Shown here: positions 11,280 to 26,736 of the stretch, piece after piece
Layout of the letters: the number at the start of each line of letters is the position of its first letter
Numbering within the stretch: position 1 is the stretch's first letter
NCBI GenBank assembly: GCA_963749455.1
Contig: CAVVMX010000006.1
Coordinates: 125,769 to 157,768 of the forward strand
DNA from: an uncultured Chloroflexia bacterium
Lineage (GTDB): Bacteria; Chloroflexota; Anaerolineae; JAAYZQ01
Direction of reading: 5' to 3'
Length of the DNA: 32,000 nucleotides
Notes under the pieces: model-generated
What the model saw: only the letters and a program-made list of their open reading frames with translations
What the model was told of the DNA's origin: nothing
Databases searched by the model: none
Program-made: the position numbers and the translations under genes

Positions 11280-11294
11280 CAGCCGAAAACCTGC

Positions 11295-11330: not shown

Positions 11331-11412
11331 CAACTACAAAAGATCCTTCGCCGTCGGCTTGCAGGTTCTGATCAACCCGGCTCCGTAGAACGCAAATCGG
11401 ACTCCCCACCAT

Positions 11413-11441
11413 TTGACAGCTTCACAGTTCTTTGCTAGAAT
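11413..11441 (+). promoter_or_regulatory. near-consensus sigma-70 promoter of the yhfZ-like operon
   Basis: TTGACA (11413-11418), 17-nt spacer, TAGAAT (11436-11441), within an AT-rich intergenic patch. Confidence 0.6.
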
Positions 11442-11460
11442 ATACAATGTACTATATTCT
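11437..11460. promoter_or_regulatory. inverted-repeat operator candidate overlapping the -10 element
   Basis: AGAATATA (11437-11444), N8, TATATTCT (11453-11460). The 8-bp arms are perfect. Confidence 0.4.
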
Positions 11461-11541
11461 GCATTTTGTATGACCGGTCGAGCGAGGGCGATGATTACAG
11501 ATCTGCTCCTGCCTCTTGTGTCGAAACAGGGAGTGGCCGTC

Positions 11542-12429
11542 ATGAAACTGGCCACACTGCTCCTCATTCACCAGCGAGGAGACCGAATCCAGCCTGTCCA
11601 ACAGTACGCTGAGGAGCTGGGAACAGGAGTGGGCACGATCCAGGCAGCCCTGGCCTACCTCCAGGAAATCGGGGCGGTCGACCTCGAGAGCCGGGGGCAC
11701 CTGGGTACATTCATCCGTGAGATCGACTACCCTCTCATCTGGTCCCTCACCGGACAAAACCAGATCGTGGGTGGCATGCCGCTGCCCTATTCCCGCCGAT
11801 ATGAGGGTCTGGCCACCGCACTCCACGAGGCATTTCGCCGGGCCGAAATCACCCTGAACCTCGTCTACACGCGCGGCGCCCTGAACCGCCTGCGTGCCTT
11901 GGAGGGAGGCAAGTTCGACTTTATCGTCCTATCGCGTTTCGCGCTGAGCAACGCTATCGAGCGAGAGTTGGCGGTCGAGGAAGTGCTGGGCCTCGGCGGC
12001 GAGTCTTACGTGGGGCAGCACGTTATTCTACTAAGAGACCGGGACCAGCAGGAGATCGTGGATGGAATGAGGGTTGGCATCGACCCGTCGTCCATCGATC
12101 AGGTCCTCCTGGCCAAGGAAGCCTGCCGTGGCAAGGACGTCGAGTTTGTCGAGGTTGGCTACATGAACCTGATGGCAGCTCTGGGCAAGGGACAGATCGA
12201 CGCCACCGTCTGGAATCAGGATGACTTTAGCACCTCGGCTCACCCATTCAAGGCGGTGCCCCTTGCGTTGCGCGACCTTGACCAGGCGCACGACAACACA
12301 GAGGCGGTCATTGCCGTGCAGAAGGGCAACCGGCTGGCCCTTCAAACCCTGAGGGTGATCATCGAACCGGAGACGATCCGCGACATCCAGCGGCAGGTGA
12401 TGGAAAACCGGCTCGTGCCGGCCTATTGA
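11542..12429 (+). CDS. yhfZ: YhfZ-family transcriptional regulator (N-terminal HTH plus periplasmic-binding-protein-like C-terminal domain)
   Basis: ATG 11542 with GGGAG about 8 nt upstream gives 295 aa. QQYAEELGTGVGTIQAALAYLQEIGAVDLESRGHLGTFI is HTH-like. The rest resembles my recollection of YhfZ, and the gene neighbourhood is yhf-type. The 11413 start in the ORF track lies inside the promoter, and the in-frame ATGs at 11470 and 11491 lack good SDs. Confidence 0.7.
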   Translation: MKLATLLLIHQRGDRIQPVQQYAEELGTGVGTIQAALAYLQEIGAVDLESRGHLGTFIREIDYPLIWSLTGQNQIVGGMPLPYSRRYEGLATALHEAFRRAEITLNLVYTRGALNRLRALEGGKFDFIVLSRFALSNAIERELAVEEVLGLGGESYVGQHVILLRDRDQQEIVDGMRVGIDPSSIDQVLLAKEACRGKDVEFVEVGYMNLMAALGKGQIDATVWNQDDFSTSAHPFKAVPLALRDLDQAHDNTEAVIAVQKGNRLALQTLRVIIEPETIRDIQRQVMENRLVPAY

Positions 12430-12469
12430 AGGTCCAAGTCCGGACTTGTTGCTTCCGCAGAGGACAGAA

Positions 12470-13681
12470 ATGCGTGCATCGAGCCAGGCACCGAAACCCA
12501 GCAAAATCCTGCTACGCGCCCATGAGCTCGCGCCGGCGCTGGTCGACATCCGCCGCACGCTGCACCGCCACCCTGAGCTCGGCTTCGAAGAGCGCTGCAC
12601 CGCGGCCCTCGTCGCCTCCAAGTTGCACTCGCTGGGCATCCGTGTCGAGACGAACGTCGGTATAACGGGCGTGGTGGGTCACATCGGCACGGGGGGCCCT
12701 ATTGTCGCCCTGCGGGCCGACATGGACGCTCTCCCTATCCAAGAGCTGAACCAAACGCCGTATGCCTCTGAGGTGCCTGGGATCATGCACGCCTGTGGTC
12801 ACGACGCCCACACGGCCTGTTTGCTGGGGGCCGCCACCATCCTCCAGGAGATCAAGCTCGACGGACAGGTGCGCCTGATTTTCCAGCCCTCAGAAGAAGG
12901 CATGGACAAAGAGGGCAAGAGCGGGGCCATGCGCATGGTCGAGGAGGGGGTCGCGGACGGCGTGCAGGCCTTTTTCGCCCTGCACGTGGACAGCGACTAC
13001 CACTCCGGCACGCTGGCGTGCTCACCGGGCTATGTGCTGGCTGCCATGGACACCCTTGTCATACAGGTCATGGGTACGGCGGCACACGGTGCCCAGGCCT
13101 ATCTGGGGGTAGATGCAGTGCTGCTGGCATCCCAGGTAATCGGCGCGCTGCACACAGTGGTCTCGCGGCGCATTTCGCCCCTGGACAGCGGCGTCATATC
13201 GATCGGCCTGATCCACGGCGGGACAAAGGAGAACATTCTGGCCGAACAGGTAGAGCTGCGCGGCACGGTTCGCAGCTTCAAGCCCGAGGTGCGCCAGGCG
13301 CTGCTCCGCGAAATCGACCGCGTGTGTGGGATAACCCGTGCTGTGGGGGGCGACTATCGCCTCTCCATCTGGCACGGGTACCCCGCACTGCACAACGATC
13401 CGAGCCTGACGGCGTTTGCCGTGGAGGCTCTGACCGGCCTGATCGGAAGCGAGGCGCTACTTCCCCTGGAACCCGAGATGGGCTCCGAGGATTTCAGTTT
13501 CTTTGCGCAGCGGGCGCCGGCATGCTACATGTCGCTCGGCGTCCGGTCCCCAGGACAGCCCATGCGCCCGGCGCACCATCCCGGCTTTGACATTGACGAA
13601 TCGGCCCTGCCGCTGGGAGCCGCCAGCCTGGCCCACCTTGCCGTCGGCTACCTGAATGCTCGGCCGCACGAGGGACAGTAG
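12470..13681 (+). CDS. M20D-family amidohydrolase (N-acyl-amino-acid/hippurate hydrolase type)
   Basis: GAGGA lies 5 nt before ATG 12470. HRHPELGFEE, ALRADMDALPIQE, MHACGHDAHTACLLGAA, FQPSEEG, IHGGTKENILAEQVELRGTVR. Confidence 0.9.
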   Translation: MRASSQAPKPSKILLRAHELAPALVDIRRTLHRHPELGFEERCTAALVASKLHSLGIRVETNVGITGVVGHIGTGGPIVALRADMDALPIQELNQTPYASEVPGIMHACGHDAHTACLLGAATILQEIKLDGQVRLIFQPSEEGMDKEGKSGAMRMVEEGVADGVQAFFALHVDSDYHSGTLACSPGYVLAAMDTLVIQVMGTAAHGAQAYLGVDAVLLASQVIGALHTVVSRRISPLDSGVISIGLIHGGTKENILAEQVELRGTVRSFKPEVRQALLREIDRVCGITRAVGGDYRLSIWHGYPALHNDPSLTAFAVEALTGLIGSEALLPLEPEMGSEDFSFFAQRAPACYMSLGVRSPGQPMRPAHHPGFDIDESALPLGAASLAHLAVGYLNARPHEGQ

Positions 13682-13689
13682 AGGAAACC

Positions 13690-14103
13690 ATGGCCTTTGA
13701 GGAACGGTTCCGGCTTCTGATCGCGAGTGGGCAGGCCAGCGAGCGGACCGTCGCAGCTGCCCGCGCTGCCCTTGGGGAGGTGGAGGCGCACTACCAGATC
13801 CTTCTCTGCGAACAAGTGGGTGCCTCGCTGGCCACGCACATCGCGGTCACCATGAAGCGCCTGTTGGACGGGGAAGCGTTGACCCAGGCCCCCGACACCG
13901 TCTGGAGCGAGCTCACGGCCTGGCCCGAGGAGGTGGCGCTGGCTACCTCCGTCGTGCACGGGCTGTGCAGAAGGCTGCGCCACTCCATCGCGCGGGACGA
14001 GGTCGGGTTTATCGCCCTGCATCTGTGCCGGATCCGGGCTGCAACCCTGCTGGCAGCCGAGGAGCCCGGCACAGCGGGGACTGCCGGTGAGGTGAGTGCA
14101 TGA
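13690..14103 (+). CDS. yhfY: stand-alone PRD-domain protein (YhfY-like)
   Basis: 137 aa. ...VGASLATHIAVTMKRLLDGEAL...RDEVGFIALHLCRI is a typical PRD helix pattern with conserved His residues. First gene of the translationally coupled block. Confidence 0.7.
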   Translation: MAFEERFRLLIASGQASERTVAAARAALGEVEAHYQILLCEQVGASLATHIAVTMKRLLDGEALTQAPDTVWSELTAWPEEVALATSVVHGLCRRLRHSIARDEVGFIALHLCRIRAATLLAAEEPGTAGTAGEVSA

Positions 14104-14474
14104 TACGCATCAACGTCGGGGGACTGGCAGCCAAAGAGATCGCTGCCCTGGCTGCTCAGGTCGGAGGAGGCCAGGTCGAGGTGCAGGTAGGGACCGACAT
14201 TGTCGGGGCGCAGCAGGTCGCCATGGGAATGGCCGACTACTATTTCGGCGCCTGCGCCACCGGCCGGGGAGGTGCTCTGGCGATGGCCATGGCCCTCCTG
14301 GGCGTTTCGAAATGCTTCACTGCCAGCACGACCGGCCGGCCGCCCAAGGAGCAAGAGGTCCGGGAAGCCGTCGCTGCCGGCAAGAAGGCGTTCGGTTTCA
14401 CCACCGATCACGTGGATGTGGCTGTGCCTATGATCGTCAAGGCCATCCTGGCCGGGCGCCGCCACGAGGCCTAG
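14100..14474 (+). CDS. yhfU: YhfU-like protein (DUF2620 family)
   Basis: ATGA overlap with the PRD gene. 124 aa: MIRINVGGLAAKEIAAL...MADYYFGACATGRGGALAMAMALLG.... Size, position and sequence fit YhfU. Confidence 0.65.
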   Translation: MIRINVGGLAAKEIAALAAQVGGGQVEVQVGTDIVGAQQVAMGMADYYFGACATGRGGALAMAMALLGVSKCFTASTTGRPPKEQEVREAVAAGKKAFGFTTDHVDVAVPMIVKAILAGRRHEA

Positions 14475-14519
14475 CGCGCTGCGCCGGCGTCTGCGGGCCG
14501 AGTTCGAGGGGACCAAGCA

Positions 14520-15803
14520 ATGTCATCGACAACCATCGTGCTGATGGCTGTTGCGGGTGCCATAGGGGCCGCCCTGGCCAATCGGGGCGTTGCCGTGTTC
14601 CACGACGGACTCCGCGCCCTCGTACCAGAGCTGCTCGAGGGTCGCCTGCAGCGTAAGGAGTTTGGCGCCCTCGCCTCTAGCATGAGCTTTGGGTTGCTCG
14701 TCGGCTATGGCCTGCCGTTCTCGGTCGTGTCGGGGGTGGTCCTCTATCACAGCCTTTGGCTCGGAACAGATATCATCGGCGCACGGTTTCCCGGCCCGAC
14801 TGGATCTGGCCGGCAAGATCACAGCAGGGAGCTTCTAGGTCTGATCGGCGCCGCGCTCGCCGGTTGTCTCTACGGGGCCCTGCTGGCGGCAGGGCTGGCG
14901 GGCGTGCGCTGGCTCTTCTCGCACCTCCCCATCCCGATCCAGGGTTCCCTTCAGGAGATGGGGGCGCCGATCGTCCTGGCCTTTGCCATGTTCCCTGCCG
15001 TTGCTGTGGCCTGCCAGCACGGCGCCAGACACGGGGTGCTTGTGTTCCTTCTTACGCTGTTGGCACGGCATATCGCGAGCAGCCTGGGATTGGCCGGGCC
15101 CGACGCCTGGGCACTGGGCGTGGGCATGGCTACGTTGGTGATCTATGCCCTTCTGGCTCAGAAGCGCAGCCGGCCGGCCCAGGGCATGGTGCCGATTCCG
15201 ACCCAGGGCGCGGCTCGAATCCGCCGCCATCTGCCCTCGATCGTGCTGCTGGGTGCGGTCTATGGCCTAATCTGCAGCCAGGCGGTCATGATGGAGAGCC
15301 CACAGTCACTGCTTGCCCTCGGCCAGGGGGATCGGGCGACCGCGATCGGCGTCACAATCGCGCGTGGGTTGTGCTTTACCCCTCAAAAGACGATGTCGGC
15401 TGCGGCTACTGGCGTGTTCGCCCTCGACGGCTTTGGCTTTGTGGCGGCGGCAGGATTGCTCGCCCCAAATGCGTGGAGCGCGGCTCTGGCCGGAGCGATC
15501 GTCATGGGCCTCGAGGCGCTGAGCTTGGTCGCACTGTCTCGGCTGCTGTGCCGCTGGCCGGTTCTGTCCCAGACGGCCGACGCCATGCGCACCGCCATGA
15601 CTAAACTGCTCGAGATCGCCTCGATGGTGGGCGGTATGCTTGCGGCGAACAGCCTGAAGCCTGGCCTGGGGTTTGCAGCGGTGGCCGGCCTGTATGCGCT
15701 CAACGAGGTGTCCGGCTTGCCCATCACGCGTGCTGCCGCCGGCCCGGTGGCCATCCTCCTGTTTGGCCTGGGGCTTAACCTGTTCGCATGGATCACGGGA
15801 TAG
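14520..15803 (+). CDS. yhfT: YhfT-like polytopic inner-membrane protein (putative transporter)
   Basis: 427 aa with at least 10 hydrophobic segments. The N-terminal ...RGVAVFHDGLRALVPELLEG... resembles the YhfT N-terminus as I recall it. Confidence 0.7.
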   Translation: MSSTTIVLMAVAGAIGAALANRGVAVFHDGLRALVPELLEGRLQRKEFGALASSMSFGLLVGYGLPFSVVSGVVLYHSLWLGTDIIGARFPGPTGSGRQDHSRELLGLIGAALAGCLYGALLAAGLAGVRWLFSHLPIPIQGSLQEMGAPIVLAFAMFPAVAVACQHGARHGVLVFLLTLLARHIASSLGLAGPDAWALGVGMATLVIYALLAQKRSRPAQGMVPIPTQGAARIRRHLPSIVLLGAVYGLICSQAVMMESPQSLLALGQGDRATAIGVTIARGLCFTPQKTMSAAATGVFALDGFGFVAAAGLLAPNAWSAALAGAIVMGLEALSLVALSRLLCRWPVLSQTADAMRTAMTKLLEIASMVGGMLAANSLKPGLGFAAVAGLYALNEVSGLPITRAAAGPVAILLFGLGLNLFAWITG

Positions 15804-15805
15804 CG

Positions 15806-16900
15806 ATGCAGACCTACCCTTTAGAGCAATTGGATCTGGACGGCGCGATGGAGCTGCAATTCCGCTTGGTGGAGGCCATCGCGCGCCACTTTGACGGGCA
15901 TGCGATCCTCGAGGCCGGGGATTACGGACTGTGGGCAGACACGGGGCGGCCCCACCATACCGCGCGGGTCGAGGCTACGCTCGCCGACCTGTTCGGCGCC
16001 GAGGCCGCCTGCCTGGTTCGTGGGGCAGGCACGGGGGCAGTTCGCTCCACCATCATGGCTGCCGTGAAGCCGGGGCAGGAGCTGCTGCTGCATCAGGCGC
16101 CTCTCTACCCCACGACCCACGTGACTCTCGAAGCCATGGGCCTGCGGCCGGTGTTCGTCGATCTGAACGACCCGAGCGCGCTCGGAGAGTTCCCGCCCAC
16201 CGTGTCGTGCGCGCTGCTGCAACACACTCGCCAGCGGATGGACGACCGATACCAGTTGGCCGAAGTGATCCGGGCGCTGAAGGCGAGCCGCCCGAATCTG
16301 ATGGTGATCGTGGACGATAACTATGCGGCCATGCGCGTGCCCAAGATCGGGATCGAATTGGGTGCTGACGTCTCCACCTTCTCGCTGTTCAAGCTACTCG
16401 GCCCCGAAGGGGTGGGGTGCGTGCTGGCGGGTCACGATCTGGCTGCCAAGATCCACAGGCAGAACTACTCGGGAGGCACCCAAGTCCAGGGGGTCGAAGC
16501 TCTGGAAGCGCTGCGGGCCCTGACCTACGCGCCGGTGGCCTGGGCCGTTCAGAGCCAAGTTGTCGAGGAAGTGACGCGCCGCCTGAACTCTGGCGAGGTG
16601 GTGGGCGTGGAGCAGGCCTACGTGGCCAACGCCCAGTCACGGGTCATCCTGGTCAAGCTCGACAAACCGCTTGCCAAAGGGGTGGTGGCCGCCAGTGTTC
16701 AGTTTGGAGCTGCCGACCGTCCGGTCGGGGCGGAATCGCGTTACGAGGTCGCTCCGCTCTTCTACCGCATCTCGGGCACGTTCCGTGCAGAGAATCCCGA
16801 CCTGGCGGAACGGATGATCCGGATCAATCCGATGCGAGCCGGAGCCAATCTCGTCATCAGGATCCTCGACAAAGCCTTGGAGGCGTGTCAGGGAGGATGA
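15806..16900 (+). CDS. yhfS: YhfS-like fold-type-I PLP-dependent enzyme
   Basis: MQTYPLEQLDLDGAMELQFRLVEAIARHFDG...; DDNYAAM and STFSLFKLLGPEG (candidate PLP-Lys). ATG 15788, overlapping yhfT, is an alternative start. Confidence 0.7.
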   Translation: MQTYPLEQLDLDGAMELQFRLVEAIARHFDGHAILEAGDYGLWADTGRPHHTARVEATLADLFGAEAACLVRGAGTGAVRSTIMAAVKPGQELLLHQAPLYPTTHVTLEAMGLRPVFVDLNDPSALGEFPPTVSCALLQHTRQRMDDRYQLAEVIRALKASRPNLMVIVDDNYAAMRVPKIGIELGADVSTFSLFKLLGPEGVGCVLAGHDLAAKIHRQNYSGGTQVQGVEALEALRALTYAPVAWAVQSQVVEEVTRRLNSGEVVGVEQAYVANAQSRVILVKLDKPLAKGVVAASVQFGAADRPVGAESRYEVAPLFYRISGTFRAENPDLAERMIRINPMRAGANLVIRILDKALEACQGG

Positions 16901-16901
16901 G

Positions 16902-18083
16902 ATGTTCCTAGACGTTACACTCCAACGAAATCCCAGGCTGATCGAAACCGCGCTGGCATTTCACCGCGCGGGGATCATCCCTCCCAATTGCTTCGTCATC
17001 GACTCGGACATTGTGGCAGAGAACGCCGCACTGCTCCACCAGGCCGCACATCGGGCCGGGCTGGACCTGTACTTCACTACCAAGCAGATCGGGTTCAACC
17101 CTCTGCTCGCCCGGCGCATCGTCGAGGCGGGCATCTCCAGAGCCATTGCCATCGATGCCCGGGAGGTCTCGGTCCTGGCGCGCAACCAGATCCCCATCGG
17201 TCATGTCGGTCACCTGGTGCAGATTCCCTATCACCTGATCGGCCCGGTGCTGAGACTGGAGCCGGAAGTTGTCACGGTCTTTAGCGTAGACAAGGCGAAG
17301 CAGATCTCCCAGGTGGCCGTGCAGGAGCAGCGTCAGGTCCGGCTCTTGCTCCGCGTCGTTGCTGACGGCGATTTCGTCTATCCCGGCCAGGCAGGCGGGC
17401 TGCAACTGGACACCCTGGTGTCACAGGCCATGCTCATTCAAGAGCTGCCCAACCTCCGGATCGTCGGCGTCACCTCCTACCCTTGTCTTCAGCTCGACGC
17501 AGCAACCCAGACTCTGATACCCACTCAGAACCTGTCCACCATCCTTCAGGCGGCGCGTGCTCTGCAAGAAGAGTTGGGCATTGTCGTCGAGCAGATCAAC
17601 GCGCCGGGAAACACGTGCGTTGGCGTCATGGACCTTTTGGCTCAGGCGGGCGCCACCCACGGTGAGCCCGGCCATGCCCTGACCGGGACTACATACCTGC
17701 ATACGCGCACCGATCAGGCAGAAAGACCGGCCATGGTCTATGTGAGCGAGGTCTCGCACCTCCACGGGAACCAGGCCCATCTCTTCGGCGGCGGAACATA
17801 TCGCCGGGCGGGGGTTCACAACGCCCTGGTCGGATCTGGCGCTGACAGTCTGGCGCGCACCGAGATTCTGCCGCTCGATCCCACCGCCATAGATTATTAC
17901 GTCGCGTTGGCGCTGCCTTCTGATCATACCGTGCAGGTGGGAGACACTGTGATCCTTGCTTCGCGGGCACAGGTCTTTGTCAGCCGCAGCTACGTGGCGG
18001 TCGCCCAGGGGATTCAGGCCGGGCATCCTACCCTGGCAGGTCTGTTTGATTCCTGGGGCGGGGCTGTGGAGAGGGTCGTCTAG
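16902..18083 (+). CDS. yhfX: YhfX-like alanine-racemase-fold (fold-type-III PLP barrel) protein
   Basis: GGGAGGA RBS overlaps the yhfS stop. 393 aa. CFVIDSDIVAENA...LYFTTKQIGFNP (Lys in the position of the racemase PLP-Lys). Confidence 0.7.
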   Translation: MFLDVTLQRNPRLIETALAFHRAGIIPPNCFVIDSDIVAENAALLHQAAHRAGLDLYFTTKQIGFNPLLARRIVEAGISRAIAIDAREVSVLARNQIPIGHVGHLVQIPYHLIGPVLRLEPEVVTVFSVDKAKQISQVAVQEQRQVRLLLRVVADGDFVYPGQAGGLQLDTLVSQAMLIQELPNLRIVGVTSYPCLQLDAATQTLIPTQNLSTILQAARALQEELGIVVEQINAPGNTCVGVMDLLAQAGATHGEPGHALTGTTYLHTRTDQAERPAMVYVSEVSHLHGNQAHLFGGGTYRRAGVHNALVGSGADSLARTEILPLDPTAIDYYVALALPSDHTVQVGDTVILASRAQVFVSRSYVAVAQGIQAGHPTLAGLFDSWGGAVERVV

Positions 18084-19294
18084 TGTCCCCTCGAGTGATC
18101 CTGCTGGTTATCGACGCGTTGGGCATTGGCGAGATGCCCGACGTCGCGCGGAACAGGCCCCAGGATGCCGGTGCCCATACGCTGGGCAGTGTCCTGCAAG
18201 ATGTGGGCCGCCTGGATCTTCCTGCCATGGCCGAGCTAGGCCTGGGCTGCGTCGATCCCTTGCCCGGCCTCGACCTCCCTGCGTCGGAGCCGCTCGCCAG
18301 CTACGGCCGATGCCGGCTTGCCCACACAGGTGCCGACAGTTACCTGGGACACCAGGAGATCATGGGTGCGATCCCCAAGCCCCCTGTGCTGACCCTCATG
18401 GCGCAGGCAGCCGGCCTGCTGGAGCAGCAGCTCGCTGCACACGGTCATATAGTCAAAAGGCCGCTGGATGGAAAGGGCCTGTTACTGGTCGATGAAGCGC
18501 TCGTGATCGGCGACAACCTGGAGGCCGATCCTGGACTGAATATCAACCTGACCGTCGCCACCGACGAGATCGACTTTGGCCGGGCCCTCGCGATCGGCAA
18601 GATCGTCCGGGAGCTGGTGAGCGTCGCCCGTGTGATCGTCTTTGGAGGGCCCGGCATTACGACCGGCAGCATCCTGGACCACGTGGAGCAGCGAGACAAT
18701 GGACAGCTCGGCGTCAACAGCCCTGCTCTGGGGGTCTACGATGAGCATCTGTTTGTCCAGCACCTGGGCTATGGGGTCGATCCCGAGCGGCAGGCAGCAT
18801 CTATCCTATGCCGGGCTGGCATCCCGGTGGTTCTGCTCGGCAAAATGGCCGATCTGGTCGTCTGCCCCTGCGCCCGCCAGGATTCGGTGGTCCCCACGCC
18901 GCAGCTGATGCGCACGTTGCGCGATTGCTACCGGAGTGCGCTTGGAGGCCTGATCGCAGCCACGGTGCAGGAAACCGACCTGGCCGCTCACGAAGGCGAC
19001 TGTGCGCGATTTGCCCACGTGCTTGGCGACGTAGACCGTGGCTTGCAGGCGCTGCTGCCGGACATGGCCGCAGGCGATCTTCTGATCCTCTGCGCTGACC
19101 ATGGCAACGATCCGCGTGTGAACGTCGGGCTCCACACCAGGGAAGAGACGCCCCTGCTGATCTACCAGAAAGATAGGGCCGCTGTGCCCTTGGGAGTTCG
19201 CAGCACGCTCGCGGATATTGGCGCGACTATCACCCATATGTTCAGTGCACCGCCGACACAGGATGGTGTCACCCTATTGGATCGGAGGAATTGA
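18083..19294 (+). CDS. yhfW: YhfW-like metalloenzyme-superfamily mutase (phosphopentomutase-like)
   Basis: GTG overlaps the yhfX TAG by 1 nt. VILLVIDALGIGEMPD..., ...LILCADHGNDP... These are alkaline-phosphatase-core motifs as in DeoB-type mutases. Confidence 0.75.
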   Translation: MSPRVILLVIDALGIGEMPDVARNRPQDAGAHTLGSVLQDVGRLDLPAMAELGLGCVDPLPGLDLPASEPLASYGRCRLAHTGADSYLGHQEIMGAIPKPPVLTLMAQAAGLLEQQLAAHGHIVKRPLDGKGLLLVDEALVIGDNLEADPGLNINLTVATDEIDFGRALAIGKIVRELVSVARVIVFGGPGITTGSILDHVEQRDNGQLGVNSPALGVYDEHLFVQHLGYGVDPERQAASILCRAGIPVVLLGKMADLVVCPCARQDSVVPTPQLMRTLRDCYRSALGGLIAATVQETDLAAHEGDCARFAHVLGDVDRGLQALLPDMAAGDLLILCADHGNDPRVNVGLHTREETPLLIYQKDRAAVPLGVRSTLADIGATITHMFSAPPTQDGVTLLDRRN

Positions 19295-20700
19295 TGCAAC
19301 TGGAGCTTCTCACGCCGGAGGATGTGGCGAGTGTTCATGCCGCCTCTATCCGCCTACTCGCCGAGATGGGGGTTCGATTCGGCAGCCGAAAGGCGCTGGA
19401 GATCCTGGCTGCTGCGGGCGCCCGCGTCGACCTGGACCGGAAAATGGTCTGGATGCCGGAGACGCTCGTCGAGGACGCCTTGCGTACCACCTCCGGCCAT
19501 TTCCGGCTGTGGAGCCGGGATGGCAGCCAGGTAGTGGACCTGCAGGATGGCCAGATCCGGGGCCATAACGTCGGCGGGTGCGTGCGGATCTTTGATTTCC
19601 TCAAGGGCGAGGCGCGAGACGCAACGCAGGGCGACCTAGTGCAGCTGACTGTTCTCCTGGATGCCCTCGAGAATATCCACGTCTGCCGGCCCATGGTCTA
19701 TCCCCGCGACTTTCCCACCATGCTGCGCGACATCTTTATTCTCGGCACCATGCTCCGGCACACCACCAAGCCGTACGGAGTCACCGCCTACAGCCCGGAG
19801 AACCTCGTCTATATTCTCGAGCTGGCCGGCGTCATCGCCGGCAACCTGGAGAATCTGAGGAGCAGGCCGTTCCTCTGGGGCAGCGTCTGCCCAGACAGCC
19901 CTCTCTCTTACTCTGAGAGCACCTCGAACATCCTGATGCGATACGCCGAGCTTGGGTTGCCGGTTGCCATTGCGCCCTGCCCAATCTGCGGGGGAACAAG
20001 CCCCGTCACCCTGGCCGGAACGCTGGCCCAGCTGAATGCCGAGTTCCTGGCCGGCCTGGTCCTGGTGCAGGTCATCCAGCCTGGAATCGACGCCAAGTAC
20101 ACCGGCCGGCCCATACCCATGGACATGAGGACCGGCAATGCCACATTTGGCGCCGTTGAGGCGGGCATGATGTCCGCCGGAATTGTCCAGTTGGCCAGGC
20201 GCTACCGAGTCTGTTCTGACGTGTACGGCCTGGGTACTCGCTCCAGAGCGCTGGACGAACAGTCGGCGTACGAGAAAGCGATAAACGGCCTGCTGGTGGC
20301 GCTGGCCGGGGCCGATCTGGTAGCGGCTGCGGGGCTGCTTGAGGATGCGCTTACTTCTAGCGCAGAGCAGCTGGTGATCGACAATGACATCCTGGGTATG
20401 ATTTTCCGCGCTGTGCGCGGAATTGGGGTCACGCCCGAAAGCCTGGCCGTCGAAACGATCATGAAGGCGGGCATCGGCGGCAGTTTTCTGACCGAGCCGC
20501 ACACCCTGGCCCATATGCGAAAAGAGCTGTACCTGCCCAAGCTTGCCTCACGCCCAGCTTCCCAGGCGCTCCTGGAGGCAGCTGCTGACAGGGTCCAGAC
20601 CATTCTGGCGTCCCACCAACCCAAGCCGCTCGAGGCGGCGATGGTCGCCGAGATCGAGCGCATCCTGGACCGGGCGACCCGAACGCTGAGGGCACAGTGA
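19294..20700 (+). CDS. MttB-superfamily (trimethylamine methyltransferase family) protein, non-pyrrolysine type
   Basis: ATG 19294 overlaps the yhfW TGA by 1 nt. LLTPEDVASVHAASIRLLAEMGVRF...ALEILAAAGARVD...MPETLVEDALRTT...FRLWSRDG follows the family N-terminal pattern. About 468 aa with no internal stop codon. Confidence 0.8.
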   Translation: MQLELLTPEDVASVHAASIRLLAEMGVRFGSRKALEILAAAGARVDLDRKMVWMPETLVEDALRTTSGHFRLWSRDGSQVVDLQDGQIRGHNVGGCVRIFDFLKGEARDATQGDLVQLTVLLDALENIHVCRPMVYPRDFPTMLRDIFILGTMLRHTTKPYGVTAYSPENLVYILELAGVIAGNLENLRSRPFLWGSVCPDSPLSYSESTSNILMRYAELGLPVAIAPCPICGGTSPVTLAGTLAQLNAEFLAGLVLVQVIQPGIDAKYTGRPIPMDMRTGNATFGAVEAGMMSAGIVQLARRYRVCSDVYGLGTRSRALDEQSAYEKAINGLLVALAGADLVAAAGLLEDALTSSAEQLVIDNDILGMIFRAVRGIGVTPESLAVETIMKAGIGGSFLTEPHTLAHMRKELYLPKLASRPASQALLEAAADRVQTILASHQPKPLEAAMVAEIERILDRATRTLRAQ

Positions 20701-20744
20701 GCGACTTGGACAACAGCGACATCTGTGGACCTCGATGGTCACCC

Positions 20745-21023
20745 GTGACGGCGACCGAGATCACCGTCACCCTCTCCAGCAGGGCGAGCCTGCACGCCCG
20801 TCCGGCAGCGCTGCTGGTACAAGTGGCGAATGGATTTGCCTGTGATGTGCGCGTGTTCAAGGCCGGTGGTGGCTCGGCGAGTGGCAAGAGCATCCTGGGG
20901 ATCCTGAGTCTGGACGTAGGCCCCAGAGACACGATCACCGTTCGAACGGAAGGAGACGATGCTCAGCAGGCGCTCGCTCGCATCCGGGCGCTTGTGGAGA
21001 GCGATTTCGTAGAAGTGGAGTGA
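20745..21023 (+). CDS. ptsH: PTS phosphocarrier protein HPr
   Basis: SLHARPAALLV (His-15 motif) and ASGKSILGILSL (Ser-46 region). The GTG at 20745 gives 92 aa. The ORF-track start GTG 20697, which overlaps the mttB-like stop as GTGA, is an alternative. Confidence 0.85.
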   Translation: MTATEITVTLSSRASLHARPAALLVQVANGFACDVRVFKAGGGSASGKSILGILSLDVGPRDTITVRTEGDDAQQALARIRALVESDFVEVE

Positions 21024-21182
21024 GGAAGGTTCCGGAAAGGGAAACGATCTGTCGAAATGGAGGTGAAAGGCGGCATATTCCAATGCGGGGCCCGCATGAC
21101 CTTGGCCAGGTCAGGTCGGCAGAATTCGGAAGCCCGCAGAAGCTTCCACTCTTGGTAACCAAACAATAAAGGAGAGAGGATC

Positions 21183-22868
21183 ATGAAACGCTTGAACCTA
21201 GTCGTATGCGTGTTGATGGTCGCCACCTTGGCCCTTAGCGCCTGCGGGGCGACGCCTACACCTCAGGTCATCAAGGAGACGGTGCAGGTCAAGGAGACGG
21301 TGCAGGTCAAGGAGACCGTCGAGGTCAAAGAGACCGTGCAGGTCAAAGAGACGGTGCAGGTCAAGGAGACCGTCGAGGTGGTCGTGACCGCCACCCCCGA
21401 GCCGACGCCTGCCCCGAAGAAGGGGGGGGTGCTGATCGCCGCGTATGCAACCGACGCCAAAGGCGTGGACCCGCACACGGCCACCAACTTCTCTGCCTTC
21501 CGCATCCTGGAGCTGACGTACGACTCACTGCTGGCATTCGACAAAGATCTGGCTGTGATTCCGAACCTTGCCGAGTCGTGGAGCTGGTCGGATGATGGGC
21601 TCGCGCTCACCCTGAAACTGCGCCAGGACGTCAAGTTCCATAGCGGCAACCCGCTCACATCAGCGGATGTCAAGTTCTCATTCGAGCGGATCCTGGACGA
21701 AGCTACCGGGGCCGCCGCGCGCTCCTACTTTACCAATATCACCAGCATCGATACGCCCGATGACTATACCGTCGTTCTGCACCTTGCTGAGCCGCAGGTC
21801 TCCCTTCTGGCGGCTATGACGAACGCAAACTCGGCGATCGTGGACTCCAAGGCGGTTCAGGCCGGCGCGGACCCGACCAAGACCGAAGTCGGCTCGGGTC
21901 CATTCAAGCTGGAGAGCTGGGAGCCTGACGTCAAGCTGGTCCTTACTGCCAACGAGGACTACTGGATGCCCGGCCTGCCATACCTGGACGGCATCGAATT
22001 CCGGACGATTCCAGACGAGAGCTCTATCCTGGCTGCGCTGCGCACCAAGCAGATCGATTGGGGCATCATCGCCGACCCGCGGGTGGCTATTGCCGCCGGA
22101 GCGGCCGGCAGCACGCTGGTGATCGACCGGGCGCCCGCGCTGTCGTACCACGTGATGCAGCTCAACGACAAAAAGCCGATCTTCCAGGATGTGCGCGTGC
22201 GGCAGGCCCTGTCATGCGCCATCGACCGGCAGCAGGTTCTGGACACCGCCTCGCTCGGCGAAGGCCAGGTAATCGGTCCGGTGACACCCCCCTACTATCG
22301 CCCCACCGACGCGGAGAGCCTCTACTGCTACACCCAGGATCTGGAGAAGGCCAAGCAGCTGCTGGCGGAGGCCGGCGTGACCACCCTCAAGTTCGCGATG
22401 ATGGCCACCACCGAGGAAATGCCCGTGACCGTCGCCGAGGCGCAGAACATCCAGGCGCAGCTCACCCAGCTGGGTATCGAGACGACCATCGACACAGTCG
22501 AGCTGGGTGTCTTTGTGGACCGCTGGTTCGCGACGGACTTTGACGCCGTGCTCACCGAGAACGGCGGCAACCCCGATCCCGACGTGATGCTCTATCGCTA
22601 TTGGCACAGCACCGGTAACCTGAACTCCATCGCGACCTATAACGCGCCCGAGATCGACGAGCTGCTGACCCAGGGCCGCACCACGGCCGATCCCGAGCAG
22701 CGCAAGGCCATCTACGCCGACGTCTCTCAGAAGCTGACCGAGGCGGCGCCCTGGATCTGGCTGTACGTGGGATACCAGTACCGCGTGATGCAGCCCTACG
22801 TCACGGGCTATACTTCGCTGGCGAATGGCTCTGCCATGTACTTGCGCGAGACGTGGCTCAACAAGTAG
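21183..22868 (+). CDS. ABC transporter substrate-binding lipoprotein, family 5 (peptide/nickel/opine type)
   Basis: AAGGAGAGAGG RBS. Lipobox LALSACG. AESWSWSDDGLALTLKLRQDVKFHSGNPLTSADVKFSFERILD and the overall length are typical of DppA/OppA-type SBPs. Confidence 0.9.
   Translation: MKRLNLVVCVLMVATLALSACGATPTPQVIKETVQVKETVQVKETVEVKETVQVKETVQVKETVEVVVTATPEPTPAPKKGGVLIAAYATDAKGVDPHTATNFSAFRILELTYDSLLAFDKDLAVIPNLAESWSWSDDGLALTLKLRQDVKFHSGNPLTSADVKFSFERILDEATGAAARSYFTNITSIDTPDDYTVVLHLAEPQVSLLAAMTNANSAIVDSKAVQAGADPTKTEVGSGPFKLESWEPDVKLVLTANEDYWMPGLPYLDGIEFRTIPDESSILAALRTKQIDWGIIADPRVAIAAGAAGSTLVIDRAPALSYHVMQLNDKKPIFQDVRVRQALSCAIDRQQVLDTASLGEGQVIGPVTPPYYRPTDAESLYCYTQDLEKAKQLLAEAGVTTLKFAMMATTEEMPVTVAEAQNIQAQLTQLGIETTIDTVELGVFVDRWFATDFDAVLTENGGNPDPDVMLYRYWHSTGNLNSIATYNAPEIDELLTQGRTTADPEQRKAIYADVSQKLTEAAPWIWLYVGYQYRVMQPYVTGYTSLANGSAMYLRETWLNK
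21273..21380 (+). repeat. 18-bp x 6 in-frame tandem repeat encoding (KETVQV-KETVQV-KETVEV) x 2
   Basis: Units run 21273-21290, 21291-21308, 21309-21326, 21327-21344, 21345-21362 and 21363-21380. They sit directly after the lipobox Cys, forming a tether between the lipid anchor and the SBP fold. Confidence 0.95.
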
Positions 22869-22945
22869 GATAGAAACTACGGGAAGTGGTCGGCGGTCAA
22901 AATGCCAGCCGCCGTCCACTTCCCAACGCGCAGAGTGAGACGGTC

Positions 22946-23899
22946 ATGCAGAGTTTCCTGTCCCGGCGGCTGATCGCATTCATACCCACCCTGTTGGGCA
23001 TCACGATCATCATCTTTATCGTGATGCACCTCATCCCGGGTGATACCATCGATGCCATGATCGGCACCGAGTTCAAGCTGACCGAAGTGCAGGCGCAGGC
23101 CCTCCGCGAATACTTTGGGCTGGATAAACCGCTGCCCGAGCAGTATGCGCGCTGGCTCCTGGCCGCCGCGCGCGGCGATTTTGGTTACTCTGTCCGCAAG
23201 GGAGAGCCTGTGCTGCCGCTGATCCTGCGCCACTTTCCTCTCACCCTCGAATTGGCGGTTCTGGGCATGGCAGTCGCCCTATTGCTGGGCATCCCGCTGG
23301 GTGTGCTGTCGGCCGTCAAACGCGATTCGCTGATCGACCTGATCGGACGCCTCTTTGCGCTGATCGGGCTGGCCGTGCCCGCATTCTGGCTGGGCACGCT
23401 GATCATCCTCGTCCTATCGCTGCGTTTCAATATCATGCTCAATGCCGGAAACTATGTCGACCTGTTCGAGGACCCCGTGGGGAATCTAAAACAGATGCTC
23501 TTTCCTGCTCTCGCCCTGGGCTTTGCGGCAAGCGCAGATGTGATGCGCACCATGCGCTCGGCCATGTTGGAGGAGCTGGGGCAAGACTATGCTCGAACGG
23601 CGCGCAGCAAGGGGTTGAGTGAGCGGGCGGTGATCTACAGACATTGCCTCAAGAATGCATTGATCCCCGTCATCACCATTGTTGGCCTTGAAACCGGCTA
23701 CCTTTTCGGCGGCGCCGTCATCGTCGAATCGGTCTTTGCCCTGCCGGGCGTCGGACGGCTCCTTCTGGATGCCATCGGCCAGCGAGACTATGCCGTGGTT
23801 CAGGGGACCATCTTGCTGATCGCCTTCAGTTTTGTCTTGGTGAACCTGTTGACCGATCTGGCCTATGCTTGGGTCAACCCGCGGATTCGCTATGATTGA
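22946..23899 (+). CDS. ABC transporter permease (DppB/OppB type)
   Basis: MQSFLSRRLIAFIPTLLGITIIIFIVMHLIPGD..., with an EAA-loop region ARTARSKGLSERAVIYRHCLKNALIP. Confidence 0.9.
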   Translation: MQSFLSRRLIAFIPTLLGITIIIFIVMHLIPGDTIDAMIGTEFKLTEVQAQALREYFGLDKPLPEQYARWLLAAARGDFGYSVRKGEPVLPLILRHFPLTLELAVLGMAVALLLGIPLGVLSAVKRDSLIDLIGRLFALIGLAVPAFWLGTLIILVLSLRFNIMLNAGNYVDLFEDPVGNLKQMLFPALALGFAASADVMRTMRSAMLEELGQDYARTARSKGLSERAVIYRHCLKNALIPVITIVGLETGYLFGGAVIVESVFALPGVGRLLLDAIGQRDYAVVQGTILLIAFSFVLVNLLTDLAYAWVNPRIRYD

Positions 23900-24782
23900 G
23901 AGCGGCAGCGCGCGTCTTCGTGTTCCTCAATCGGGAGCTCTCCACTCGCGGCGTGCCCGCGGCGTTCTGCGGCTGTTCCGCAGCGGCAGCACCGTGATCG
24001 GATTGATCCTGGTCACCATCTATGTCGTCGTGGCGCTCTTTGCTTCGACGCTGGACGCCTACTCGCCGATCGAGCAGCATCCAAAGGACCGACTACAGCC
24101 ACCCTCCGCCAAGTACCTGCTGGGCACAGACGAGTTCGGGCGTGATATCCTAAGCCGGCTGATGCACGGCGCTACCAACTCCTTGCGTGTTGCCGTCCTG
24201 TCGGTGGCGATTGCGTGCCTGGTGGGAGCCAGCCTCGGCATATTGGCAGGCTACGCCGGAGGGCTGGTGGACAACGTCATCATGCGCGTGATGGACCTTT
24301 TCTTCGCCTTCCCTGCCATGCTGCTGGCGCTTTCAATTGTGACTGCCCTGGGACCGGGGATGAAGAACACCATCCTGGCCATTGCACTCGTCTACATGCC
24401 GATTTTCGCGCGTGTGGCACGCGGCCCCGTCCTTGCCGTCAAGACCATGGAGTTTGTGGATGCGGCGCGGTCAATCGGCGCGCAGCACTTACGCATCGTG
24501 GGGCGTCACATCCTGCCAAACATCACCGCCCCAATCCTCGTTCAGGTCAGCCTTGCACTGTCCTGGGCCATGCTCACCGAGGCCGGCCTCAGTTTCCTGG
24601 GGCTGGGGACCATCCCTCCAACGCCGTCGTGGGGAAGCATGTTGGCTGACAGCCGCAGACTGATGGAGCTCGCCCCCTGGACCGCCGTCTTTCCCGGTCT
24701 GGCGATCATGGTCGGCGTGTTGGGCTTTAACTTGTTGGGCGATGGCCTGCGCGACGTGCTCGACCCGCATCTACGGAACTAG
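23892..24782 (+). CDS. ABC transporter permease (DppC/OppC type)
   Basis: ATG 23892 overlaps the previous stop (ATGATTGA). YLLGTDEFGRDILSRLMHG, EFVDAARSIGAQHLRIVGRHILPN. Confidence 0.9.
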   Translation: MIESGSARLRVPQSGALHSRRARGVLRLFRSGSTVIGLILVTIYVVVALFASTLDAYSPIEQHPKDRLQPPSAKYLLGTDEFGRDILSRLMHGATNSLRVAVLSVAIACLVGASLGILAGYAGGLVDNVIMRVMDLFFAFPAMLLALSIVTALGPGMKNTILAIALVYMPIFARVARGPVLAVKTMEFVDAARSIGAQHLRIVGRHILPNITAPILVQVSLALSWAMLTEAGLSFLGLGTIPPTPSWGSMLADSRRLMELAPWTAVFPGLAIMVGVLGFNLLGDGLRDVLDPHLRN

Positions 24783-24853
24783 CCCAGGCAACCCAATGGC
24801 GCAGCTCTCTTGCAGTTCTCGGAGATCGGTCGCCGGTGCAGATGGAGGAAGGC

Positions 24854-26569
24854 ATGCGGTGGCTTGAAGGTATCTTTGCCTCGGAGGGCGTGGCGATAGG
24901 CGCTGTCTGGATCTATCGCCCCCGTGCTATCGTAGCCGTTGAGCGCACAGTAGCCGCCCCGGAAGCCGAGTCCGCGCGCCTGGGGGCCGCTCTGGCGCGC
25001 GCCAAGGAAGAGTTGGATGCGCTGTACCACAATACCGCCGAGGTAGTGGGCGTCAGGACCGCCGGCATCTTCCAGGCACAACGGTTGATTCTGGAGGATC
25101 CGGAGCTACTCCACGCTGTCGAAGCTCATCTCCGCGCGGGAGCGAATGCGGAAACCGCGCTCGCCACAGAGGTCGAGCGGTTTGCTTCCATGCTGGCCGG
25201 CCTACAAGAACCCACCCTTCGGCAGCGTGCCGCCGACGTGCGGGATGTGGGCCAGCGCGTGCTGCACGTGTTGGCAGGAGCGGAGAGGATCTTGTCGGCT
25301 GCCCCTGGCGCGCCTGCCATCGTCGTCGCCCAAGATCTGAACCCCTCTGAGGTGGCGCAGTTGAACAGGTCTGAGACGCTTGGCATAGCCCTCGCGCGGG
25401 GCGGAAGCACTTCTCACGCGGCTATCCTGGCACGCGGCCTGGGGTTTCCGACCGTCGTCGGCCTCGGCGACCGGCTGCTCGACGCGGTTCAGAACGGCAT
25501 GTTCGTCATCCTTGACGGGCACGCAGGGCTTCTGATCGTGAGTCCGGAAGAAGCCCTGTTGCAGGACTATGGGACACGGCGGGCGCTCTGGCGTTCCGCG
25601 TGCGAAGCGGCGCGTGCCACTGCCCTGGACCCGGCGATCACACTGGACGGCCGCCGGGTAGAGGTTGTAGCCAACCTGGGCGATGGCACGTCGGCACAAG
25701 CCGCGCTGGCCTTCGGCGCGGAAGGGGTGGGCGTGCTGCGCACCGAGTTTCTCTTCCTCCAGCGCGGGGCGATGCCCGACGAGGAGGAGCAGTACATCGC
25801 CTACCGCGCCCTCGCCACGGCGATGGGCTCGCGGCCGCTGATTATCCGGACCCTGGACATTGGGGGTGACAAGGACATTCCCTATCTGGACTTGGGCCAG
25901 GAGCGCAATCCGTTCCTGGGCTACCGCGCGATCCGCATCTCGCTCACCCATCCCGAAATGCTCAAGACGCAGTTGCGAGCGATCCTCCGCGCGGCAGAGG
26001 GCTGCAATGTCAAAGTGATGTTTCCCATGATCGCGACACTCGACGAACTGCGCGCTGCGCGGCGTCTCCTGGAAGAAGCGCGGACGGAGCTGTGCGCGCG
26101 TCTCGGGGCATCTGTTCCCGGCATCGAGGTGGGGATCATGGTCGAAGTACCTTCGGCTGCCGTCTGCGCACCTGTCTTGGCGCGCGAAGTAGACTTTGTC
26201 AGCCTGGGTACGAACGATCTAATCCAGTATACGCTGGCCGCAGACCGCACGAATGAGCGTGTGCGGACCCTCTACGATCCCCTCCAACCGGCTGTCCTCC
26301 ACCTGGTCAAGAAGGTGATCGACGATGCGCATGCCGCCGGCATCTGGGCCGGCGTGTGCGGCGAGATGGCCGCCGACCTCGATGCTGTGCCGCTCCTGCT
26401 TGGCATGGGCCTGGATGAGTTCAGCATGAACGCGGCCACGATCCCCGAGGTCAAGGCCCTGATCCGTTCCCTCCGCTCTGATGCGATGCAAGACCTGGTT
26501 GCGCGCGCTCTGAAATTGCCCACCGCAGTGGAGATCCGTGCGCTGGTCCGCGGGCGGTCTGCGGTCTGA
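24854..26569 (+). CDS. ptsI: phosphoenolpyruvate-protein phosphotransferase (PTS Enzyme I)
   Basis: GGAGG lies 5 nt before ATG 24854. GGSTSHAAILARGLGFP (active-site His), GTNDLIQYTLAADR, FRTEFLF-like LRTEFLFL. Confidence 0.95.
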   Translation: MRWLEGIFASEGVAIGAVWIYRPRAIVAVERTVAAPEAESARLGAALARAKEELDALYHNTAEVVGVRTAGIFQAQRLILEDPELLHAVEAHLRAGANAETALATEVERFASMLAGLQEPTLRQRAADVRDVGQRVLHVLAGAERILSAAPGAPAIVVAQDLNPSEVAQLNRSETLGIALARGGSTSHAAILARGLGFPTVVGLGDRLLDAVQNGMFVILDGHAGLLIVSPEEALLQDYGTRRALWRSACEAARATALDPAITLDGRRVEVVANLGDGTSAQAALAFGAEGVGVLRTEFLFLQRGAMPDEEEQYIAYRALATAMGSRPLIIRTLDIGGDKDIPYLDLGQERNPFLGYRAIRISLTHPEMLKTQLRAILRAAEGCNVKVMFPMIATLDELRAARRLLEEARTELCARLGASVPGIEVGIMVEVPSAAVCAPVLAREVDFVSLGTNDLIQYTLAADRTNERVRTLYDPLQPAVLHLVKKVIDDAHAAGIWAGVCGEMAADLDAVPLLLGMGLDEFSMNAATIPEVKALIRSLRSDAMQDLVARALKLPTAVEIRALVRGRSAV

Positions 26570-26684
26570 CACCCGCTTCTGTTCGACACCGGCCTTCATC
26601 TCGACGACGGGTTTGCACATGCGCCCGGACGATCGAGTTCTGGGCCGCGCCTCTAGACATCCGCGTCGGACCTGCAGCGGCGAT

Positions 26685-26713: not shown

Positions 26714-26736
26714 GTGCGCGGCAAGATGGGGTGTGG

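Follow-up and report, generated by a model that had tools for sequence, protein, structure and literature searches.

The yhf genes form one of the larger conserved Escherichia coli clusters that lack a function, and an expanded relative in an uncultured Chloroflexia bacterium raises the question of what kind of compound such a cluster handles. The relative lies in a DNA stretch of 32,000 nt (contig CAVVMX010000006.1, positions 125,769 to 157,768; hereafter the window, meaning the full stretch). Here, 14 consecutive + strand open reading frames (ORFs) occupy 11.4-26.6 kb in the order yhfZ-M20D-yhfY-yhfU-yhfT-yhfS-yhfX-yhfW-MttB-HPr-SBP5-permease-permease-EI, where EI is Enzyme I of the phosphoenolpyruvate (PEP)-dependent phosphotransferase system (PTS). 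The array is a member of the yhf family, and it is neither a canonical PTS nor a canonical methylamine methyltransferase operon. We favour, with a probability of roughly 45%, its interpretation as a horizontally mobile operon under a single promoter, which would serve the catabolism of an N-acylated or N-methylated alpha-amino compound and include the phosphorylation of this compound at some point.

ORF families were called by Pfam and NCBIfam profile searches with curated cut-offs (Table 1). The original prediction had assigned a family to each of the 14 ORFs; all assignments were recovered above the cut-offs, and none of the ORFs moved to another family. YhfZ scored 350.5 bits against NF041241 (cut-off 260) and carried the Pfam domains HTH_41 and YhfZ_C. 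Alignment to its homologue in a related locus (L001) places the start most likely at ATG 11491, giving 312 aa. In YhfY, a stand-alone PTS regulation domain (PRD) protein, both PRD histidines were present (THIAVTMKR, GFIALHL), and His50 was kept in at least 97% of 66 homologues. YhfS, 50% identical to its E. coli counterpart, had the conserved residues SxxK202 and D176, and it probably starts at 15806, where the alignment with E. coli YhfS begins. YhfW reached 450.8 bits against PRK12383 (cut-off 254), with the metal-ligand Asp/His residues and the motif D85-S86-x-x-G-H-Q-E conserved. The predicted enzyme set of two different pyridoxal 5'-phosphate (PLP) folds, a phosphomutase and an amidohydrolase was thus borne out, by the matches to 4J8L and 4KBX, to PRK12383 and to TIGR01891, respectively.

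Table 1 Genes of the array and features of its promoter region, with positions in the window.
Feature	Position	Strand	Evidence or remark
Sigma-70-type promoter TTGACA-17 nt-TAGAAT, extended -10 TG	11413..11441	+	11/12 consensus matches
Perfect 8-nt inverted repeat AGAATATA-N8-TATATTCT	11437..11460	.	Overlaps -10 box
yhfZ: GntR-type helix-turn-helix (HTH) regulator, periplasmic-binding-protein-like effector domain	11491..12429	+	NF041241 YhfZ_full
M20D/ILR1-type N-acyl-amino-acid amidohydrolase	12470..13681	+	TIGR01891, 363.8 bits (cut-off 153.75)
yhfY: stand-alone PRD protein	13690..14103	+	PF00874, 29.3 bits (cut-off 23)
yhfU (DUF2620): small RpiB-fold protein, 124 aa	14100..14474	+	Pfam; start overlaps yhfY stop (ATGA)
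yhfT: polytopic all-helical membrane protein, presumed permease	14520..15803	+	PF10797, 336 bits
yhfS: fold-type I PLP enzyme	15806..16900	+	YhfS-like_C; PDB 4J8L, E 3.7e-105
yhfX: fold-type III (alanine-racemase-like) PLP enzyme, K61 conserved	16902..18083	+	YhfX-like_C; PDB 4KBX, E 3.2e-90
yhfW: phosphopentomutase-like metalloenzyme, alkaline-phosphatase superfamily	18083..19294	+	Start overlaps yhfX stop (TAGTG)
MttB-superfamily methyltransferase homologue, non-pyrrolysine	19294..20700	+	PF06253, 283 bits; start overlaps yhfW stop (TGATG)
HPr phosphocarrier	20697..21023	+	TIGR01003, 68.8 bits
Family-5 (peptide/nickel/opine-type) solute-binding protein (SBP5), N-terminal hydrophobic leader	21183..22868	+	SBP_bac_5, 322 bits
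ATP-binding cassette (ABC) permease 1 (DppB/NikB-like)	22886..23899	+	BPD_transp_1; true start possibly ATG 22946
ABC permease 2 (DppC/NikC-like)	23865..24782	+	BPD_transp_1
PTS Enzyme I, PtsI type, three domains, no GAF	24854..26569	+	TIGR01417, 545.5 bits (cut-off 341.7)

Seven of the eight families of the E. coli K-12 cluster yhfZ-yhfY-yhfX-yhfW-php-yhfU-yhfT-yhfS (b3376-b3383) are present in the window. Six proteins were detectable by BLAST, at 31-50% identity, whereas YhfY was too diverged. The T-U and X-W pairs are kept, while the E. coli order Z-Y-X-W-php-U-T-S is replaced by Z-(M20)-Y-U-T-S-X-W. Seven genes are added to the E. coli set: M20D, MttB, HPr, SBP5, two permeases and EI. The php gene (phosphotriesterase family, PF02126), which had been said to be missing, was indeed not found in the window by tblastn with E. 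coli Php and with the phosphotriesterase (PTE) of locus L022. The RefSeq copy of E. coli K-12 still labels yhfS to yhfZ as 'putative' or 'uncharacterized', and 4J8L and 4KBX, both solved E. coli structures, were deposited as uncharacterised proteins. In the literature searched, there was no functional study of the yhf cluster (DUF2620 appeared in one unrelated paper), and no description of the yhf core combined with the MttB clade and EI/HPr. The cluster therefore matches no characterised pathway, as had been claimed. Because the E. coli cluster has no assigned function, membership of the family names the window cluster and does not explain it.

Relatives were collected by scanning GTDB species representatives with the YhfT profile. 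This gave 80 loci, all ORFs of which were clustered, with annotation of the frequent clusters; the view extends 10 kb to either side of each locus and is weighted toward Photorhabdus and Xenorhabdus. YhfT loci occurred in Chloroflexota, Bacillota, Fusobacteriota, Spirochaetota, Synergistota, Actinomycetota, Pasteurellaceae and Enterobacterales. The core consisted of Z, Y (the PRD protein, 66 loci), U, T, S and X, with W in 34 loci; PTE/Php was found in 59 of 83 surveyed loci. Three adjacencies survived all rearrangements, namely T-U (59/61 loci), Y-Z (58/60) and X-W (33/34). The U-T pair was once seen duplicated as a unit, in L022 (6092-10423), where one cluster holds two YhfU-YhfT pairs (U-T ... 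PRD-T-U). In ten Photorhabdus loci, among them L028 (3150-5944), a FruB-like EIIA-HPr fusion and a FruA-like EIIB'BC were encoded directly upstream of yhfZ. These Photorhabdus and Xenorhabdus clusters were without yhfW. For two loci with YhfT only (L017, L072), the neighbours were uninformative beyond a T-PTE pair.

The nearest relatives of the window cluster were found in Chloroflexota (Anaerolineae-type) genomes and metagenome contigs, in several architectures. L001 has the window order, Z-M20-Y-U-T-S-X-W-MttB-HPr-SBP, and L086 reads Z-M20 fragment-Y-U-T-S-X-W-MttB. In L003, L004 and L005, Z-Y-U-T-S-X-W-MttB is followed by a corrinoid protein. L083 has the order Z-Amidohydro_3-M20-Y-PTE-U-T-S-X-W-MttB-SBP-amidase-amidase-permeases. 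The compact L093 reads Z-Y(PRD)-U-T-MttB-S-X-W-HPr-EI and holds no kinase gene. In L025, divergent EI and HPr genes precede SBP-permease-permease-GNAT-beta-lactamase-family-AnmK-MurQ-Y-U-T-S-X-W-MttB; L085 has the same arrangement as far as it could be read, the EI/HPr genes being seen in L025. Outside this phylum, full-length EI was encoded inside the yhf clusters of a Bacillota metagenome-assembled genome (MAG; Clostridia, L008) and of a Treponema MAG (L076, with HPr). Related clusters repeatedly carried SBP5 transporters and hydrolases of the M20, Amidohydro_3, amidase and beta-lactamase families. The added genes are thus part of the yhf system and not chance neighbours, the PTS genes recur as a functional component of it and are not an add-on, and the window cluster represents a Chloroflexota-wide variant. 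In the Anaerolineae-type MAGs of L003, L004 and L005, the yhf-MttB-corrinoid cluster is followed after 2-3 kb by a heliorhodopsin gene (15627-16550 in L003).

Relatives of the MttB homologue with at least 50% identity (~67 sequence clusters) form a clade, below which identity next falls to at most 46%. Clade members lay inside yhf clusters in 10 of 10 contexts examined, covering six architectures, and M20 genes recurred in such clusters as well. The two MttB homologues of 42-45% identity that were examined had unrelated contexts and were not yhf-embedded. The window protein scored 414.9 bits against TIGR02369, under the cut-off of 525. It matched the MTTB TIM barrel over its full length, scoring 236 bits against MttB (7XCL) and 200 bits against MtgB (2QNE, 9YCE). 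Its ORF is uninterrupted, with no in-frame UAG, and Gly314 occupies the pyrrolysine position of 7XCL. A two-domain B12-binding corrinoid protein is encoded directly 3' of MttB in the Anaerolineae-type loci L003, L004 and L005, as in known MttB systems; the window MttB lacks such a neighbour. A further difference from known systems is that the window gene is embedded in an amino-compound catabolic cluster and not in a methylotrophy operon. A new MttB clade is thereby defined, in non-methylotrophic Chloroflexota.

The physical organization of the array suggests one unit. Its promoter was the best site in the 16.6 kb scanned (10.8-27.4 kb), where 7 promoter-like sites were found against 2.6 +/- 1.6 expected. 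The claim that the array begins at a consensus promoter is thus confirmed. Position 11413, given as its start, falls on the -35 box of that promoter and is not a start codon, as yhfZ begins at about 11491. The inverted repeat at the -10 box is a candidate operator, possibly that of YhfZ. This palindrome was not kept in L001 and L002, where only 11455-11489 is conserved. The genes between 13690 and 21023 had been described as consecutively overlapping or abutting. The ATGA (yhfY/yhfU), TAGTG (yhfX/yhfW) and TGATG (yhfW/MttB) junctions are real, as is GTGA (MttB/HPr) if the HPr start GTG 20697 is used, but yhfU and yhfT are separated by 45 nt. These junctions suggest tight co-translation of the stretch from yhfY to HPr. 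The ATGA overlap of yhfY and yhfU recurred in L001, L085, L086 and L093. A scan with Rfam gave no match within the cluster. A regulatory RNA in the 159-nt spacer between the HPr and SBP genes was considered and rejected, the spacer having no unusual structure (z = -0.51).

Part of this organization could also be read as chance juxtaposition, a plain yhf operon standing beside unrelated M20D, MttB, ptsH, degenerate peptide transporter and ptsI genes on the same strand. The 159-nt gap ahead of the SBP gene and one of ~70 nt ahead of ptsI would suit this, as would an ABC system without ATPases and an MttB without a corrinoid partner in the window, as broken remnants might be. However, the same additions recur in other orders and contexts, including MttB within the core in L093, and the yhf-linked MttB proteins form a clade of their own. 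No promoter or terminator signal above chance level was found inside the array, terminator-like sites occurring at chance frequency. All 14 genes are intact, with no frameshift in ~15 kb; in the flanks, by contrast, frameshifts split at least four genes. We regard chance as a very improbable explanation.

The G+C content was 0.60-0.665 across the cluster (11001-27000) and 0.68-0.71 in the flanks (2001-7000, 27001-31000), that is, 3-8 points lower in the cluster. The near-identical gene set of L001 stands in a different context, with restriction, RNase H, nucleotidyltransferase-type, defence and mobile genes. The lower G+C and the different context of L001 suggest horizontal transfer of the cluster as a unit. 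Together with the intactness of the 14 genes beside split flanks, they indicate that it is both maintained and transferable as a unit.

Clues to the substrate come from the accessory genes. The M20D protein has the Peptidase_M20 catalytic and M20_dimer domains. Its nearest solved structures were ILL2 (251 bits), the Staphylococcus aureus M20 protein 4EWT, YxeP and N-alpha-acyl-glutamine aminoacylase, all of them N-acyl-L-amino-acid hydrolases. The SBP5 protein reached no NCBIfam equivalog and was 61% identical to its L025 orthologue. The original prediction of an N-acylated or peptide-linked amino compound, possibly phosphorylated or N-methylated, is supported by the recurring hydrolases, by SBP5 and by the yhf-embedded MttB clade. 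PLP enzymes need a primary amine, and a moiety that is phosphorylated, sugar-like or hydroxylated is suggested by the phosphomutase and the RpiB-like protein. All of this is most simply unified if the accessory enzymes turn naturally occurring conjugated or N-methylated forms into the substrate of the core pathway, with a dedicated PTS relay providing control or energy.

Some of the same hydrolases would also fit peptidoglycan degradation. Muropeptides or D-amino-acid peptides would then enter via SBP5, and amidases and deacylases would free a D-amino acid or an amino-sugar derivative for YhfX and YhfS. In L025 (5280-9109) and L085 (362-4273), the SBP5 transporter genes are separated from PRD-U-T-S-X-W-MttB by genes for a GNAT protein, a hydrolase of the beta-lactamase family, the anhydro-MurNAc kinase AnmK and a MurQ-like etherase, all on one strand. 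This insert is a peptidoglycan-recycling signature in one sub-lineage, and the AnmK and MurQ genes are confined to that sub-lineage and absent from the window. L083 likewise encodes Amidohydro_3 (a family that includes D-aminoacylases), M20 and two amidases, and the fold of YhfX is that of D-amino-acid-handling enzymes. The nearest M20D relatives, on the other hand, act on N-acyl-L-amino acids. We know of no N-methylammonium groups in peptidoglycan that would explain the clade-wide MttB, and the phosphomutase and the RpiB-like protein would be left without a role. Peptidoglycan degradation thus appears improbable as the function of the window cluster. Amadori products, S-ribosylhomocysteine or sulfonium compounds, trimethyl-lysine, phospho-amino compounds and teichoic-acid fragments were also considered as substrates and not adopted, as nothing discriminates among them.

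Phosphate could enter a pathway for a conjugated or N-methylated amino compound by way of the PTS genes. HPr has two candidate starts, GTG 20697 (with the Shine-Dalgarno sequence GAGGG) and GTG 20745, and carries the His15 motif SLHARPA and the Ser46 motif GKSILG. EI, which probably starts at 24854, has the Pfam domains PEP-utilisers_N, PEP-utilizers and PEP-utilizers_C. As in a PTS, a genuine PtsI-type EI and an HPr are encoded in one operon with a PRD protein; unlike in a PTS, the only candidate acceptors in the window are this stand-alone PRD protein and the RpiB-fold protein YhfU. PRD domains are well known to accept phosphoryl groups from HPr and EIIB, so a relay from EI to HPr to YhfY is plausible. 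In DhaKLM, the PTS-dependent dihydroxyacetone kinase, PTS phosphoryl groups feed something other than a classical sugar permease. By analogy, those of the window PTS could do so as well.

YhfU, the second candidate acceptor, was confidently modelled with an RpiB-like fold (pLDDT, the predicted local distance difference test, was 94.8 for the model built from 26 homologues). When this model was compared with the PDB, RpiB structures ranked top (Foldseek probability 1.0; template-modelling (TM) scores 0.59-0.67). The best matches were 5IFZ (E 7e-4) and E. coli RpiB 2VVR (TM 0.67, rmsd 3.0). An EIIB-Lac domain of the PTS came only at rank 10, with TM ~0.4. Cys52, Thr54, Asp33 and Lys95 were at least 97% conserved in 60 homologues, the Cys sitting in a glycine-rich loop. 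The hhalign alignment placed Cys52-Ala-Thr54-Gly of YhfU on Cys66-Gly-Thr68-Gly of RpiB (E 0.0097, probability 4%), where Cys66 and Thr68 form the catalytic dyad. E. coli YhfU gave a sub-threshold match to LacAB_rpiB (PF02502) in the same segment (E 0.065); window YhfU did not match PF02502 at threshold, and a sequence-profile search of the PDB returned only chance-level matches to YhfU. YhfU thus shares with the RpiB/LacAB proteins the fold and a Cys-x-Thr after strand 3. It differs in that the QHND segment of RpiB, which holds His99 and Asn100, faces EAVA in the hhalign alignment. YhfU is also shorter (124 aa) and always encoded beside a membrane protein. This protein, YhfT, was modelled with pLDDT 79, and among its buried residues Arg, Asp, Glu and His are conserved. 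Its model found nothing in the PDB at E < 0.001 with Foldseek, and its sequence did not match the Pfam EIIC families.

These features bear on a bolder possibility, that YhfY (in the role of EIIA), YhfU with Cys52 (EIIB) and YhfT (a new EIIC) together form a novel PTS Enzyme II. The phosphoryl group would pass from the PRD protein to Cys52, YhfT would import and phosphorylate the substrate, and the phosphate that YhfW moves would thereby be supplied. The core, the window and L093 all hold a phosphomutase without a kinase, yhf clusters of at least five lineages from three phyla contain EI or HPr, and operon-embedded EI/HPr paralogues usually accompany an Enzyme II. The near-constant T-U adjacency with its duplication in L022, the invariant Cys in a glycine-rich loop with an invariant Lys in YhfU, and the repeated ATGA overlap of yhfY and yhfU in the window and four related loci point in the same direction. 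However, YhfT resembles no EIIC by Pfam or Foldseek. YhfU fits RpiB, in which the aligned Cys is the catalytic base, far better than EIIB-Lac. The close linkage of YhfY with YhfZ across the loci suggests that the two form a regulatory pair, phospho-acceptance by PRD domains is known only in regulation, and PfkB or AnmK kinases accompany some variants. On balance, we think a novel Enzyme II rather unlikely. In its fullest form, the proposal is a non-canonical YhfY/YhfU/YhfT phosphotransferase permease, fed by EI and HPr in Chloroflexota, whose amino-acid-like substrate is also demethylated by the corrinoid-dependent MttB; to this, too, we give a low probability. If true, it would be the first link of PTS, PLP-dependent amino-compound catabolism and MttB-type demethylation. 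The PTS permeases may thus include a kind not seen before.

We return to the favoured reading, in which one operon serves the catabolism of an N-acylated or N-methylated alpha-amino compound. What was observed is the family membership of the proteins, their intact catalytic motifs and the repeated co-location of the genes; from these we infer each of the reactions below, their order and the kind of substrate. The substrate, either conjugated (N-acyl or peptide) or N-methylated, would enter via the family-5 ABC system (conjugates) and via YhfT-YhfU. M20D would strip the N-acyl group and MttB would pass the N-methyl group to a corrinoid partner encoded elsewhere in the genome, both exposing a primary amine. 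YhfX, with its racemase/aldolase/dehydratase-like fold, and YhfS, with its aminotransferase/gamma-lyase-like fold, would then act on the freed amine. YhfW, the constant partner of YhfX, would shift the phosphate on a phosphorylated intermediate, and the RpiB-like YhfU would either isomerise a sugar-phosphate-like moiety or work with YhfT. EI and HPr of the cluster would hand PEP-derived phosphoryl groups to His50 of YhfY. As the most likely endpoint of this relay, we tentatively propose control of the regulator YhfZ and/or of YhfT, since the tight Y-Z pairing suggests that YhfY modulates YhfZ. Direct phosphorylation of the substrate is a somewhat less likely alternative, suggested by the recurrence of EI/HPr in three phyla, the lack of a kinase in the window and L093, and the obligate U-T pair.

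The frl genes of E. coli (fructoselysine) and the dga genes of Salmonella (D-glucosaminate PTS) follow a comparable logic, in which uptake of an amino-sugar or amino-acid conjugate is followed by phosphorylation, through a PfkB kinase or the PTS, and by cleavage through dedicated enzymes. The resemblance is one of logic and these systems are conceptual analogues only, as the window has no homologue of FrlB, FrlD or DgaE. In E. coli, the frl genes are immediate neighbours of yhf, and some yhf clusters have PfkB kinase genes at their flanks.

Several observations weigh against the proposed pathway. No EIIA, EIIB or EIIC was found in the window, either by Pfam searches of the cluster ORFs or with a FruB EIIA-HPr query, which matched only the HPr gene, and the cluster in the window holds no kinase. 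Some relatives have PfkB or AnmK kinases and no EI/HPr nearby, so that PTS input may not be universal. The likeness of YhfU to RpiB is structural, the sequence support (the hhalign alignment, and the profile match of E. coli YhfU only) being weak. The glycine-betaine-binding residues of MtgB are Y97, R312, H348 and F356 (PMC13080624; the numbering of the 9YCE chain is offset by 2 from that paper). In a phmmer alignment with 9YCE, these face Gly94, Asp309, a gap and Ala in the MttB homologue. With all four ligands replaced, its substrate would not be glycine betaine, and its methyltransferase activity is only putative. A corrinoid protein was not found in the window by tblastn with the L003 protein (E <= 1). 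Known MttB-family enzymes take one methyl group off quaternary or tertiary amines, which alone yields no primary amine; the PLP enzymes may therefore use another amino group of the same molecule. Opp-type ATPase genes (ABC_tran + oligo_HPY) were absent in and next to the cluster; the ABC ATPases of the window are of the ECF (energy-coupling factor) or another type, two of them frameshifted. Opp-type ATPase genes were likewise absent at L025 and L083, and the ABC system presumably borrows its ATPases from elsewhere.

The window variant constrains yhf function beyond what the E. coli cluster alone allows and gives testable clues. In E. coli, solved structures exist for two of the proteins, and yhf genes as a whole span Enterobacterales, Bacillota, Fusobacteriota, Spirochaetota, Synergistota and Chloroflexota. 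The repeated recruitment of a cluster's own EI and HPr indicates that PEP-derived phosphoryl input appears to matter. The variant has also recruited enzymes that would unmask amines, an N-acyl-amino-acid hydrolase and a homologue of corrinoid-type demethylases, as well as a peptide-type binding protein, directly usable for ligand fishing.

Some further observations concern the genes around the array. The frameshift-split genes, all on the + strand, are a permease (8132-8644/8370-8834), an ABC ATPase (8831-9298/9081-9563) and a PBP_like_2 protein (9564-10328/10136-10591) upstream, and a second ABC ATPase (27807-28310/27967-28587) downstream. In each case, the pieces match different stretches of a single Pfam profile; for PBP_like_2, some of the profile is left unmatched. 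These split genes (8132-10591, 27807-28587) may be pseudogenes or local assembly errors. A molybdenum/tungsten cofactor (Moco) riboswitch (RF01055, 67.6 bits against a gathering score of 36) was found at 1149-1303 (+), upstream of ECF/cobalt-type transporter ORFs (ABC_cobalt 1181-2215, ABC_tran 2813-3697, CbiQ 4218-5078). Partial Oxidored_molyb matches at 7423-8037 and 10422-11279 (+) bracket the broken ABC transporter genes. Given the upstream riboswitch, these two ORFs, with their partial likeness to molybdopterin-binding oxidoreductases, fit a molybdenum theme. At the other end, a thermolysin-type M4 metallopeptidase gene (31127-32000, +) runs past the end of the window.

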